Assembly (NCBI GenBank): GCA_038749595.1
Contig: JBCDHW010000013.1
Location: 2,002 to 66,001 of the forward strand
From: Pseudomonadota bacterium
GTDB taxonomy: Bacteria; Pseudomonadota; Alphaproteobacteria; Caulobacterales; Parvularculaceae
DNA length: 64,000 bases
Direction of reading: 5' to 3'
Shown here: positions 58,496 through 61,368 of the stretch, piece by piece
How the letters are laid out: each line of letters opens with the position of its first letter
Numbering within the stretch: the first letter of the stretch is position 1
Translations under genes and position numbers: made by a program
The notes under the pieces: generated by a model
Databases searched by the model: none
What the model was told of the DNA's origin: nothing
What the model saw: only the letters and a program-made list of their open reading frames with translations

Positions 58496-60376
58496 TCAAT
58501 CGACATCGACGTAGAGTTTCTCGCCTTTCTCACGATACAGCTGGCTCATCTCATCCATCCCTTTTGCCCGCGCGCGCTCTTCATCACCCATCGCCTCAAG
58601 GTCCGCTTTTTCGTTCGCGGACAGACCATCGGCGTAATCGCGCACGTCCTGCGTGATCTTCATGCTGCAGAATTTCGGGCCACACATCGAACAGAAATGG
58701 GCGGTTTTATGGGCCTCCTTGGGTAGCGTTTCGTCATGGAACGAACGCGCCGTTTCGGGGTCAAGGGCGAGATTGAATTGATCCTCCCACCGGAACTGGA
58801 ACCGTGCGCGGCTCAAGGCATCATCGCGAAGCTTCGCGGCAGGATGGCCCTTTGCGAGGTCTGCAGCGTGGGCAGCGAGTTTATAGGTAATCACGCCCGT
58901 CTTCACGTCGTCACGGTTGGGGAGACCCAAATGCTCTTTAGGCGTCACATAGCACAGCATTGCGCAACCGAACCAGCCAATCATCGCGGCGCCGATACCG
59001 GACGTGATATGATCATAACCCGGAGCAATATCAGTCGTCAGTGGACCGAGGGTATAGAACGGCGCTTCACCACACTCGCGCAGCTGCTTGTCCATGTTCT
59101 CTTTGATCTTGTGCATCGGGACATGGCCAGGCCCTTCGATCATCACCTGCACACCGTGATCCCAGGCAATTTGCGTCAGCTCACCTAAGGTTTCGAGCTC
59201 GGCAAATTGCGCGCGGTCGTTGGCGTCGGCGATCGCGCCAGGACGCAAGCCGTCACCCAGACTGAAGGTGACGTCGTACGCGCGCATGATCTCACAGATC
59301 TCGGCAAAGTTTGTGTACAGAAAGCTCTCTTCGTGATGCGCAAGGCACCACTTCGCCATGATGGATCCGCCCCGTGAGACGATGCCGGTGACACGCTCCG
59401 CCGTCAGATGAATATAGCGTAGCCTTACGCCCGCGTGGACGGTGAAGTAATCAACACCTTGTTCGCATTGCTCAATAAGCGTGTCGCGGTACACCTCCCA
59501 CGTCAGGTCCTCGGCAACGCCGTTGACCTTTTCCAGAGCCTGATAGAGCGGAACAGTTCCGATCGGCACCGGAGAGTTGCGCAAGATCCATTCGCGCGTG
59601 TTGTGAATGTTCTTGCCCGTCGAGAGGTCCATCACCGTGTCGGCACCCCAACGGGTACCCCAGACCATCTTTTCGACCTCTTCCTCGACGCTCGACGTCA
59701 CTGCGGAATTGCCGATATTGGCATTGATCTTGACCAGGAAATTCCGGCCAATGATCATCGGTTCGGCTTCAGGGTGGTTGATGTTGATCGGAATGACAGC
59801 GCGGCCGCGTGCAATCTCATCACGGACGAATTCTGGCGTAACGAATTCGGGGACGCTGGCGCCAAAGCTCTCACCATCGGCGTGACGGATCTCCGCGCCA
59901 GCAGCCGCGGCCTTCCGGCCAAGGTTTTCGCGGATCGCCACATATTCCATCTCTTCAGTGACAATGCCAGCACGAGCGAAATCGAGCTGCGTCTTCAGCG
60001 CACCGGTATAGACCCTGGGGCGCGGCACGTTCGGAAAGGCTCTGGCAAGGTAATCGCCTTGGGCGCCGCCATTATCTTCGGGCTTCACCTCGCGGCCATC
60101 ATATTGGCGCTGCTCACGCCTCTCGATCCAGGGCGCCCGAAGCTTTGGCAAGCCGACCTCGACATCGGGGACGAAGCCTTCTTCGGTGTAGGGACCACTT
60201 GCATCGTAGACTGGCAGAGGCGCCTCACCCGATGTCGGGTTGAGAATAATGTCCCGCACGGGCGCCGCAACATCTTGAAAACGCGATGACTTCACATAGC
60301 GCTTCACAGAGCTTGGTAGCGGGCCAGTGCTCACTTTTGGCGTCTGAAATTCGGATTGTTTAACGTGCTTGTTCAT
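58496..60376 (-). CDS. thiC: phosphomethylpyrimidine synthase ThiC
   Basis: [47 protein letters not shown]. Confidence 0.99.
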
Positions 60377-61284
60377 GGCCGGTCTTCTTTATGATTGTGA
60401 TGATGAGGGATCGAGCGGGTCTCGCCCGGTTGGCTGAAATAATCTGCACCCGTGGCAATGAGTGCAGCAGGGACAAACACGGGAACATGGACGCCAATGA
60501 CATGATCCGCATTCAGAAGGGTCTCAGTTCCCTCACGCCCATGGACTCGGATAATCCACTCTGGCGGAAAGGCGGCATGAGAAAGTAATCTCTTCCAATG
60601 GTCAGTGTGGGGTGTAAATGCGGATTGGTCTGGCGTGGCATCTCCGAGATGCATCACCGTCAGGGCGTCGTCGAGCGTAACGCGGTAGACCATGTTTTCG
60701 ATCTGAGCCCGCCGTAGGCCACCGGCATGGGGTATACGGACAGCCTCAACGTTTATCGCAAGACCACCCCTTTCAATGGCAAAGGTGCAGACTTCGGTGT
60801 CACTCGGCGCACATGCTGTTCCAGGACCGAACGTCGCCTGAAGCATGCGGCCGTGCCCGTCGAAAGATACGGCGCTTTCTCTTGCCGACAATGCCGAGAT
60901 CACTTGCGCCGGGCCAACCAGAATTGCGTCGTTGGACGCAAGATACGCCGCCATTTCGTCAACGGCGAAGTGGTCATCGTGGCTGTGGCTCACAAATACG
61001 ACGTCCACGTCATCATAGGGCGGCAGGCCAGCGACCAATTTCTCTTTGATGGCTGGCGGCAGCAATTGGTACTGCCCAAAACCCTTGTTGAAGAGAGGAT
61101 CGAAGAGGACCTTCACCGCGCCGTGGGTGACCATGATGCCTTCGTTCGCGAGGTACTGGACGGTCTCTTCGTCCGTATCAGGATGAGCTGCCACGGTCGG
61201 TGACGTCACCGCTGCGGCAGCCAGCGCGGCCGCACCCACATTGATCACTGCGCACCCGAGAGCACGCCGCTTTGGCGTCACCAT
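60373..61284 (-). CDS. secreted metallo-beta-lactamase-fold hydrolase
   Basis: signal peptide, YLANEG, LFDP, SHSHDDH, PH, H.GD; His-rich tail; ATGA overlap with thiC. Confidence 0.88.
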
Positions 61285-61368
61285 CGCCGTTCCTCCGCCG
61301 GTCTTAACCGGATCAGGTTCTAAGGGTGCGTCTCAACCGGACCCGTGTCCGGTGCCCCTCGGCAGGAA
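61285..61368 (-). promoter_or_regulatory. TPP riboswitch
   Basis: minus strand GCCG-AGGGG...TTGAGA...ACCCTTAGAACCTGATCCGGTTAAGACCGGCGGAGGAA-CGGC-GATG; upstream of thiC; SD (GGAGGA) lies in the 3' arm. Confidence 0.93.

Follow-up and report, generated by a model that had tools for sequence, protein, structure and literature searches.

A TPP riboswitch, a predicted exported MBL-fold hydrolase and thiC in a candidate thiamine-regulated operon of Alphaproteobacteria

The locus described here raises the question of what a predicted exported hydrolase of the MBL fold is doing between a TPP riboswitch and thiC. The window is the whole stretch of DNA analysed (64,000 nucleotides). All locus coordinates are window positions, and the riboswitch, the MBL open reading frame and thiC all lie on the minus strand. 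The riboswitch aptamer (THI element, Rfam RF00059) was located at 61273..61369 with a score of 65.9 bits (gathering score 54.3, E = 1e-10), the match being complete over model positions 1-105. It was the sole TPP match in the whole 3.18-Mb assembly. Because of this, and because the same order was found in many other genomes, the arrangement of riboswitch, MBL gene and thiC is far above chance.

A Shine-Dalgarno sequence, GGAGGA, was read from the sequence at 61291..61296 (minus strand), within the aptamer's 3′ part, and is separated by a 6-nt spacer from the hydrolase ATG (61282-61284). The aptamer's 3′ side thus contains both the Shine-Dalgarno sequence and the start codon. In the minimum free energy (MFE) fold, the AGG of GGAGGA pairs with the CCU of a P4-type helix, and the outer helix is closed by the bases flanking GGAGGA. 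The hydrolase gene (303 aa; 60373..61284, minus strand) ends in a TGA (60373-60375) that overlaps the thiC ATG (60374-60376), giving ATGA at 60373..60376 as established from the sequence and the ORF coordinates. The spacing of the Shine-Dalgarno sequence and this overlap, both claimed in the preliminary description of the locus, were confirmed. thiC (58496..60376, minus strand) encodes the radical SAM enzyme phosphomethylpyrimidine (HMP-P) synthase, and was identified by NCBIfam PRK09284 (1023.6 bits, cut-off 650), TIGR00190 (704 bits, cut-off 460) and Pfam ThiC_Rad_SAM (8.8e-186).

A 145-aa ORF with a hydrophobic N-terminus (58020..58457, minus strand, from the ORF list) lies 39 nt past thiC and is possibly the last gene of the unit, its membership being uncertain. 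It had no match in a Pfam search and was not kept 3′ of thiC in the relatives whose loci were compared. A terminator scan of the interval between thiC and this ORF gave nothing convincing. Promoter and terminator scans of the riboswitch-MBL-thiC unit also gave nothing convincing, internal terminators included. The TPP-riboswitch thiC/thiM operons of Gram-negatives are controlled at translation initiation: a THI-element aptamer likewise stands directly upstream of thiamine biosynthesis genes, and the Shine-Dalgarno sequence and start codon are sequestered on folding. The present locus differs in that its first cistron encodes a predicted exported MBL-fold hydrolase, through which thiC appears to be reached. 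It also differs in having no separate expression platform, because the ribosome-binding site lies inside the 3′ half of the aptamer.

The hydrolase is a member of the MBL-fold superfamily, in an uncharacterised subfamily of the COG2220/UlaG-like branch. Pfam matches were to Lactamase_B_3 (40.8 bits, cut-off 24, 3e-10) and Lactamase_B_2 (39.5 bits, cut-off 27, 5.8e-10). The HxHxDH metal-binding motif was read from the translation as H100-S-H-D-D-H105 (60970..60987, minus strand), within S-H-S-H-D-D-H at residues 99-105. In an alignment of 25 homologues H100, H102, D104, H105, H186, D215 and H266 were invariant, and so were Arg201 and Arg290. The protein appears to keep a complete binuclear metal site of the hydrolase type (ligands H,H,D,H,H,D,H), and the two arginines would suit an anionic substrate.

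A signal peptide was predicted by inspection at residues 1-33 (61186..61284, minus strand): K5-R6-R7 is followed by a hydrophobic segment (A12-V26) and by V31-A32-A33, with the putative cleavage site between A33 and H34. The n-h-c pattern, ending in A-x-A and then H-(P/D/E), is common to about 80 homologues, a few of which have a lipobox instead. Residues 1-40 have low pLDDT in the AF2 model. The hydrolase therefore looks exported, and on both the HxHxDH site and the signal-peptide-like N-terminus the preliminary description was borne out. Its His-rich tail is present (HHHNH at residues 294-298 of the translation; 60391..60405, minus strand) but is not conserved in the family, being peculiar to the window protein; the other aligned members end shortly past a conserved PGETR.

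Chemistry was approached through structure. The AF2 model (pLDDT 85.2, pTM 0.82) gave 91 Foldseek matches in the PDB at E<=0.001, and the 50 listed were all of the MBL fold. The nearest solved structures among the matches listed (Foldseek probability 1.0) were NAPE-PLD, UlaG (L-ascorbate-6-phosphate lactonase), a cAMP-bound MBL (7e3w) and Igni18, which share the alpha-beta/beta-alpha MBL fold and the HxHxDH binuclear site, and are remote (TM about 0.5, about 13-18% identity). NAPE-PLD also matched by profile (E 4e-7). These four proteins are intracellular or membrane-associated, whereas the window hydrolase is predicted to be exported. On the model, the fold is nearest to phosphodiesterase- or lactonase-type MBLs; the chemistry is a guess, because the structural matches are so distant (about 15% identity). 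Further remote Foldseek matches were to the di-iron MBL-fold oxygenases CmlA and FrsH. The cut-offs of the UlaG equivalog PRK11709 (14.8 bits, cut-off 306) and of PRK00685 (19.1 bits, cut-off 144) were not reached, and no Pfam or NCBIfam match to the known thiamine salvage enzymes (TenA, thiaminase, YlmB) was found. Homologues are labelled in databases only as 'MBL fold metallo-hydrolase' or 'UlaG (beta-lactamase superfamily)'.

Homologues were searched for in 401 genomes of the same order and their loci extracted. TPP elements in these relatives were found with a covariance model (R1) made from 12 Rfam-confirmed aptamers, a simple regex having missed many sites. ORFs in the relatives came from a crude GC3-based picker, and the small ORFs and precise start positions given for them should be read as approximate. 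An MBL homologue was present in 71 of the 401 genomes, one copy each. thiC and/or its riboswitch lay 0-7 kb downstream of it on the same strand in 42 of these 71, a count inflated by inherited synteny because the thiC-linked cases are all alphaproteobacterial and mostly of one order. Twenty genomes (the window plus 19 of 70 homologue loci of the order, in seven genera) had the order riboswitch-MBL-(0-3 small ORFs)-thiC, here termed class A, and 22 had MBL-riboswitch-thiC, termed class B. Within the order the linked loci spanned 12 genera and three families, with about 37-48% MBL identity to the window protein across the linked genera and with differing flanking genes. In genus g9 opposite-strand genes separate MBL from thiC. 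The family as a whole, small yet recurring, comprised 61 clusters at 50% identity (E<=1e-30), its named relatives including Parvularcula, Maricaulis, Hyphomonadaceae and Aquisalinus.

Beyond the order, the thiC link was found in a genome of another alphaproteobacterial family (G545) and in three metagenome contigs (L098, L099 and L101), two of which (L099 and L101) also have the riboswitch-first MBL order. L099 had been considered as a riboswitch-MBL unit lacking thiC. This was rejected, since its next ORF is a truncated thiC, and the contig provides no thiC-independent evidence. In the loci examined, the thiamine link of the MBL gene was specifically to thiC and never to other thi genes or to transporters. 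The preliminary description had called for a survey of this kind and would have regarded the hydrolase as a passenger insertion if its homologues were never linked to thi genes elsewhere and no activity on thiamine-related substrates were seen; homologues linked to thiC or to the TPP riboswitch do exist, and the survey does not refute the proposal. It had also supposed that thiC is expressed through translation of the hydrolase. This operon logic gains support from the Shine-Dalgarno sequence and start codon inside the aptamer and from the junctions between MBL and thiC, which are tight (overlaps or 11-13-nt gaps) in 9 of the 19 other class-A loci; junctions of this kind indicate co-translation.

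Riboswitch control is not universal in the orthologous group. With MBL upstream of the riboswitch in the 22 class-B genomes, the riboswitch cannot gate MBL there, nor is MBL TPP-gated in genus g9, and five gammaproteobacterial homologues (L089-L091, L011 and L100) had no thiC or other thi gene and no TPP riboswitch nearby. The class-B order and the gammaproteobacterial homologues favour a reading in which the protein is a passenger or general-purpose periplasmic hydrolase with a task unrelated to thiamine, such as obtaining phosphorus or carbon from nucleotides or phosphodiesters, or envelope turnover. It would stay beside thiC only by gene order inherited within one alphaproteobacterial order, the riboswitch merely happening to lie upstream of it in some lineages. 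The same reading draws on the NAGPA phosphodiester glycosidase that adjoins MBL, or is fused with it, in some relatives (NAGPA was not found in the window's genome). It would have to accommodate a link to a single-copy gene that is kept across 12 genera at the MBL identities given above while the flanks differ. It is further opposed by the overlapping and 11-13-nt junctions, and by operons of the L101 type, in which five overlapping genes lie between the riboswitch and thiC.

The family tree bears on this point from both sides. Two well-supported (starred) clades were obtained. Every thiC-linked copy falls in clade II (46 of 58 rows), which also holds the five gammaproteobacterial members; none of clade I is thiC-linked. 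The class A label requires 8 changes on the tree and the class B label 11, of which the starred branches force at least 5 and at least 7, respectively. The riboswitch thus appears to have switched position several times within clade II while adjacency to thiC was kept, which argues against a passenger. Members of clade I adjoin NrtR/nadABC (the gene overlapping an NrtR-like regulator beside nadABC), sufS-sufA, a PfkB kinase or peptidases, with essentially a single lineage behind the suf context and behind the nad context. The seven ligand residues are conserved at >=85% in each of the two clades, and a comparison of the thiC-linked clade with the other found no differences in the active site. 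Since these conserved residues are shared by a sister clade that occurs in NAD, suf and nucleoside contexts, the chemistry of the family is probably not thiamine-specific, and this favours a general-purpose hydrolase. Taken with the evidence for a maintained link, the passenger explanation is possible but on the doubtful side.

The gene contexts of the family also raise the possibility of an exported metalloprotein that acquires or handles metal for labile Fe-S enzymes. thiC (radical SAM, 4Fe-4S), nadA (4Fe-4S) and sufS-sufA would all be in keeping with such a role, as would the conserved predicted mature end (A-x-A, then H) in about 80 sequences and the remote matches to CmlA and FrsH. Set against these are the hydrolase-type ligand set, the restriction of the suf and nad contexts to essentially one lineage each, a riboswitch that senses thiamine and not metal, and the lack of a mechanism by which a hydrolase-type site in the periplasm could serve cluster assembly in the cytoplasm. 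Metal supply is accordingly regarded as very improbable.

Companion genes and possible partners were then considered. Exported His_Phos_1 lipoproteins are encoded in the riboswitch operons of L101 and L057, and directly 3′ of MBL in L082. The 2-TM and 4-TM companion proteins of related thiC operons had no Pfam match. No PnuC/PnuT, ThiB or ThiY/NMT1 importer was found in the window's 95.5%-complete genome. With no known thiamine or HMP importer found there, the uptake step is missing from the scavenging model, and this too counts towards a passenger. Co-occurrence with PnuC/PnuT, seen in a first sample of genus g15 (5/5 versus 2/5), was gone in the order-wide search (9/15 g15 genomes with MBL versus 6/10 without), and within families f1, f2 and f6 the genomes carrying MBL showed no enrichment in PnuC-family genes.

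A further possibility is salvage into the HMP branch by something other than a phosphatase. The exported enzyme would free the pyrimidine moiety (HMP or one of its precursors) from degraded thiamine or an analogue of it, breaking an amide or ester bond for instance, and the product would feed ThiD directly and so substitute for ThiC. ThiD is encoded in the window's genome, the link is specific to thiC in the loci examined, with no other thi genes or transporters, and in some bacteria HMP needs no known transporter (feeding of E. coli thiC mutants). In Bacillus, salvage of base-degraded thiamine proceeds through ThiXYZ, YlmB and TenA, feeds the HMP branch and is co-regulated with thiamine biosynthesis; YlmB is an M20-type deformylase, not an MBL. 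The likeness is a route into the HMP branch co-regulated with thiamine biosynthesis. The differences are that no ThiY/NMT1 was found in the window's genome and that 68 of the 71 MBL genomes lack TenA, on which the known aminopyrimidine route depends. The formylaminopyrimidine route via TenA was rejected on this count (TenA in just 3 of the 71, and concentrated in family f4, which is without MBL). No feature of the fold points to pyrimidine chemistry, and the link to thiC can be explained by regulation alone, with one riboswitch per genome. HMP-branch salvage of this kind is unlikely.

That regulatory explanation is based on six genomes checked, five of which (G000, G022, G033, G205 and G250) had a single TPP riboswitch. 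In G180 a second, sub-threshold TPP-like match leads only to a lipoprotein-like ORF. In these bacteria, usually no TPP sensor was found other than the thiC leader. A gene in need of thiamine-responsive control would therefore have to belong to the thiC operon, and this would account for the specific link of MBL to thiC.

The best reading, given a probability of roughly 0.4, is that the locus is a thiamine-regulated operon of TPP riboswitch, exported MBL-fold hydrolase and thiC, and that the hydrolase is a periplasmic scavenging enzyme induced by thiamine starvation, probably a phosphoesterase. When TPP is abundant, the folded aptamer would hide the Shine-Dalgarno sequence and AUG, shutting off synthesis of the hydrolase and, through translational coupling, of ThiC; when TPP is scarce, both would be made. 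In the periplasm the hydrolase, most probably a phosphoesterase or pyrophosphatase, would dephosphorylate thiamine phosphates or HMP phosphates present in solution, perhaps assisted in some relatives by the exported histidine phosphatase of the same operon. The uncharged product could then pass into the cell, where less would be required of ThiC.

Two known systems resemble this scheme. The thiamine-repressible periplasmic acid phosphatases of yeasts (PHO3 of S. cerevisiae, pho4 of S. pombe) dephosphorylate thiamine phosphates before uptake. The working model here is analogous, with a hydrolase outside the cytoplasm whose synthesis is confined to thiamine starvation, and some related thiC operons likewise carry an exported histidine phosphatase. 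The differences are the fold (MBL versus histidine acid phosphatase), a riboswitch as the regulator, and the lack of an identified importer. In Haemophilus, NadN and e(P4), a periplasmic pyrophosphatase and phosphatase, convert NAD to importable nicotinamide riboside. The clade I gene that overlaps the NrtR-like NAD regulator beside nadABC may be comparable and fits a cofactor-scavenging role, although the folds are unrelated and PnuC is not enriched in MBL-bearing genomes. A broader proposal, at present tentative and rather doubtful, is that the exported metallohydrolases of this family form a new class of vitamin scavengers. Clade II enzymes, periplasmic and induced by thiamine starvation, would convert dissolved, non-importable B1 vitamers (TMP, TPP, HMP phosphates or degradation products) to an importable form that bypasses ThiC, clade I would do the equivalent for NAD-type cofactors under NrtR, and the absent uptake step might be filled by the 2-TM companions of related thiC operons.

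New thiamine transporters and salvage enzymes have come to light mainly through TPP riboswitch regulons. The preliminary description knew of no MBL-fold member of such regulons, and a full-text literature search turned up no publication that connects an MBL-fold protein with a TPP riboswitch or with thiC. Judged from its genomic setting, the predicted exported hydrolase is a credible candidate for a new player in B1 metabolism. If it were a mere passenger, the locus would still be a clean case of a ribosome-binding site within an aptamer gating two coupled cistrons. Should the enzyme release thiamine or its pyrimidine from vitamers in solution, vitamin B1 cycling would gain an extracellular step, and a gene marker for that step would be at hand.

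A complete TPP riboswitch aptamer was located at 61273-61369 on the minus strand by an Rfam match of 65.9 bits (gathering score 54.3). It is followed on the same strand by a gene for a 303-aa MBL-fold hydrolase (60373-61284; Pfam Lactamase_B_3 and Lactamase_B_2 matches) and by thiC (58496-60376; NCBIfam PRK09284, 1023.6 bits). Reading of the sequence bore out the preliminary description: a GGAGGA Shine-Dalgarno sequence (61291-61296, minus strand) stands 6 bases before the hydrolase ATG (61282-61284, minus strand), and the hydrolase TGA and thiC ATG share the tetranucleotide ATGA. 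As the 3' end of the aptamer (61273) lies beyond the start codon, the ribosome-binding site is within the aptamer. In the minimum-free-energy fold, part of the Shine-Dalgarno sequence was paired in a P4-type helix, and the bases flanking the AUG closed and extended the outer helix. The fold z-score of the aptamer region was not significant alone, and riboswitch identification is carried by the Rfam match. A terminator scan of the unit found no convincing terminator between riboswitch, hydrolase and thiC. Translation of the hydrolase would be repressed when TPP is abundant and not when it is scarce, and TPP would repress ThiC through coupling to hydrolase translation.

An ORF of 145 aa lies 39 nt after thiC (58020-58457, minus strand); its N-terminus is hydrophobic and it has no Pfam match. 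Next to it is a convergent YbjN-family gene (57384-57992, plus strand) whose product apparently has a signal peptide. CesT/YbjN-like genes are also present within the related thiC operons of loci L057 and L101. Elsewhere the window contained an alphaproteobacterial two-piece (permuted) tmRNA gene (6915-7279, minus strand, 238 bits) and a single tRNA gene (25236-25309, plus strand), which assign the window to Alphaproteobacteria.

The signal peptide, HxHxDH site and His-rich tail described previously were all seen in the protein, the first by inspection: the N-terminal sequence shows K5-R6-R7, then a hydrophobic stretch, then V-A-A before H34. SHSHDDH occupies residues 99-105, and the tail, HHHNH at residues 294-298, was found in the window protein alone among family members. 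A large-database search returned at least 746 homologues at E<=0.001 among 8000 candidates scored, the best 120 of them at about 38-47% identity to the window protein. In the source databases they had no label more specific than 'MBL fold metallo-hydrolase' or 'UlaG (beta-lactamase superfamily)'; Parvularcula marina, Maricaulis, Hyphomonadaceae, Aquisalinus, Xanthomonadales and Woeseiaceae were among the named sources. When 1.84 billion cluster representatives were scanned exhaustively with HMMER, 61 passed E<=1e-30 and 518 passed E<=1e-10. In a 25-sequence alignment the metal ligands H100, H102, D104, H105, H186, D215 and H266 were invariant, as were N47, F61-D62-P63, N197, R201, W243, E288 and R290, and nearly all sequences terminated in PGETR. 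The binuclear site is thus intact. An export-type N-terminus runs throughout the family: about 80 extracted homologues had a signal-peptide-like start ending in A-x-A followed by H-(P/D/E), with a lipobox replacing the A-x-A pattern in a few. Four genomic matches (G389:C15:81948-82781, G210:C23:7301-8125, G225:C1:388252-389076 and G140:C7:99847-100641) contained one in-frame TGA each, which could reflect sequencing error, frameshift or fusion; in G389 the open frame continues 731 aa into thiC (extracted ORF, 683 aa).

An AlphaFold2 model was generated from the same alignment (pLDDT 85.2) and compared with the PDB using Foldseek. Among the matches listed were NAPE-PLD, UlaG, Igni18, isothiocyanate hydrolase, a cAMP-bound MBL and an MBL from Vibrio that is uncharacterised; the di-iron hydroxylases CmlA and FrsH were more distant. 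Each of these had a TM of about 0.5 and 13-18% identity. NAPE-PLD was also reached at 4e-7 in a profile search of PDB sequences. Since structure matches were only remote and the protein fell far under the cut-off of the NCBIfam equivalogs UlaG and PRK00685, it is placed in the phosphodiesterase/lactonase-like MBL-fold branch, as a member of an uncharacterised subfamily.

Homologues were searched in 401 genomes of the same order at E<=1e-20, and 71 genomes, representing 19 of 59 genera, carried exactly one each. For all 70 non-window copies, 6 kb per side was fetched; thiC was sought with tblastn, and TPP elements with a covariance model derived from 12 aptamers confirmed by Rfam. Nineteen loci, or 20 counting the window, from 7 genera in 2 families had the order riboswitch, MBL, 0-3 small ORFs, thiC (class A), and 22 (8 genera, 3 families) had MBL, 0.8-6 kb, riboswitch, thiC (class B). 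The other 29, from various taxa, had no thiC or TPP element in the fetched region. In every class-B locus thiC and riboswitch were co-oriented with and downstream of the MBL gene, as was thiC in every class-A locus, where the riboswitch too was on the MBL strand; in class-B loci L041 and L047 the riboswitch alone lay within the fetched region. For a gene present once in a 3.3-Mb genome, we estimate the probability of co-oriented placement within 7 kb by chance at about 0.1%. The MBL-thiC junction was an overlap or an 11-13-nt gap in nine class-A loci, and all five such gaps contained GGAG or GAGG. A 400-genome sample of the phylum gave only four further carriers outside the order, one of which, from another alphaproteobacterial family, again had MBL, 1.5 kb, riboswitch and thiC. 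The other three, all gammaproteobacteria, had no thi neighbour at the MBL gene, nor did Cognaticolwellia mytili. Metagenome contigs showed MBL, 3.5 kb, riboswitch and thiC (L098); riboswitch, MBL and truncated thiC (L099); and riboswitch, exported histidine phosphatase, MBL, CesT/YbjN-like protein, 2-TM protein and thiC (L101), with adjacent ORFs overlapping or at most 4 nt apart. The survey for homologues at TPP riboswitches or thi genes suggested in the preliminary description returned linkage at 41 of 70 loci of the order and at loci beyond; the MBL gene is frequently placed behind a TPP riboswitch.

An IQ-TREE tree of 85 family sequences divided into two starred clades (support 98/98). Clade II (58 rows) included all 46 thiC-linked copies; its remaining rows were five gammaproteobacterial sequences, three from genus g9, two from g44, a short contig and a sequence on a long branch. 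Synteny suggests that thiC lies just past the fetched region in the three g9 genomes. Clade I (27 rows) had no thiC-linked copy. Linkage to thiC is thus recurrent and clade-specific, with raw counts inflated by kinship. Within clade II the class A label required 8 changes and the class B label 11, with at least 5 and 7 of these, respectively, forced by starred branches; the riboswitch has therefore shifted repeatedly relative to the MBL gene while the MBL gene stayed beside thiC. The window protein formed a long branch, sister to two same-genus class-B copies. That the protein is a general periplasmic hydrolase, merely syntenic with thiC, is a somewhat unlikely reading. The persistence of the link between deeply diverged members, with differing flanks and an order rearranged several times, speaks for selection over frozen synteny.

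Several companions lie within or next to the riboswitch unit in clade II. An exported His_Phos_1 lipoprotein of the histidine phosphatase superfamily (L101:6485-6997, L082:5341-5925 and L057, c40) is part of the TPP-riboswitch thiC operon in L101 and L057; in L082 it comes immediately after the MBL gene. It recalls the thiamine-repressible periplasmic phosphatases of yeasts. An NAGPA-type phosphodiester glycosidase (PF09992) adjoins the MBL gene in several genera (L007:1495-2988, the same locus as L064; c2 genes in L026, L031, L033, L049 and L061), just upstream in Hyphomonadaceae-like g9 and in g18. In genome G033 the two are fused in a single 498-aa exported protein, a Rosetta-stone link that points to sugar-phosphodiester chemistry. 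Proteins of 170-250 aa with two predicted transmembrane helices, N-terminal E..LLW and (T/S)(D/N)QR motifs (TDQR type) and no Pfam match occur in one to three copies between TPP riboswitch/MBL and thiC in several genera (L075:4752-5959 and 6798-7349, L007:519-1124, L101:8268-8828, L062:6771-7313, L061:5346-5882, L082:3214-3762, L057:4309-4824). These could be an uptake or anchoring component of a thiamine-regulated module. A four-helix membrane protein family (about 140-170 aa, conserved GW..(I/L)(K/E)G, no Pfam match) adjoins the MBL/thiC unit in three genera (L072:5507-5929, L035:6773-7288, L025:4406-4861). Further companions were YjbR, DUF1801, DJ-1/PfpI and CesT-like proteins.

In clade I genera g15 and g16 the MBL gene overlaps the end of an NrtR-like regulator (Pfam NrtR_WHD) by 4 nt and adjoins nadA-nadB-nadC (loci including L070, L076, L079, L080 and L085). 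At these loci an ArsR/SRPBCC pair comes after the MBL gene along with nadA-nadB-nadC, and HD (YfbR-like) and DSP-like phosphatase genes precede it. In g19, probably Aquisalinus (L051, L066, L052), lipoprotein versions directly follow sufS-sufA (A-type Fe-S carrier). Together thiC, nadA and suf form an Fe-S-related neighbour set, which suggests involvement in Fe-S or metal supply; we regard that role as improbable. On three clade-I metagenome contigs a PfkB kinase gene lies 10-38 nt upstream, with DeoC, purine nucleoside phosphorylase, aldehyde dehydrogenases and a Metallophos protein nearby, and a TonB receptor on two of the three. Clades I and II probably perform the same chemistry, judging from the alignment, because neither the metal site nor the invariant polar residues included a position conserved in one clade but substituted in the other.

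In G000 (the window genome; 3.18-Mb assembly, 95.5% complete), G022, G033, G205 and G250 the riboswitch at the locus was the only TPP riboswitch found. The thiC leader would then be the only place for a thiamine-responsive gene, which would account for the exclusive MBL-thiC link. TenA is required by the known aminopyrimidine route. It is encoded in the window genome, as is ThiD, and was present in only 3 of 71 MBL genomes. Across the order TenA was concentrated in family f4 (60 of 80 genomes, against MBL in 1 of 80); in f1, f2 and f6 MBL occurred in 18-37% of genomes and TenA in about 4-5%. This near-complementarity across families may be phylogenetic or reflect alternative strategies. PnuC/PnuT-family transporters were not found in the window genome and, in the order-wide search, were not enriched among MBL carriers with family taken into account; ThiB and ThiY/NMT1 were not found in the window genome. 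No known uptake step can therefore be attached to the salvage model, and this is its main weakness.

The hydrolase may have a periplasmic scavenging role, and we give the thiamine-scavenging reading as a whole a probability of about 0.4. Within it we favour an enzyme that would act on phosphorylated B1 vitamers as a phosphoesterase or pyrophosphatase. This choice is based on the closest structural relatives, on the arginines that are invariant, on the exported histidine phosphatase encoded in the same operon and on the sister clade's NrtR/NAD and nucleoside contexts. A non-phosphatase enzyme liberating HMP is an unlikely alternative. A full-text search covering few subscription journals and no curated regulon databases found no paper that links thiC or a TPP riboswitch to an MBL-fold protein. 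Read as thiamine scavenging, the locus would encode an accessory enzyme of the thiamine regulon, unexpected in both fold and location, and the hypothesis is directly testable.
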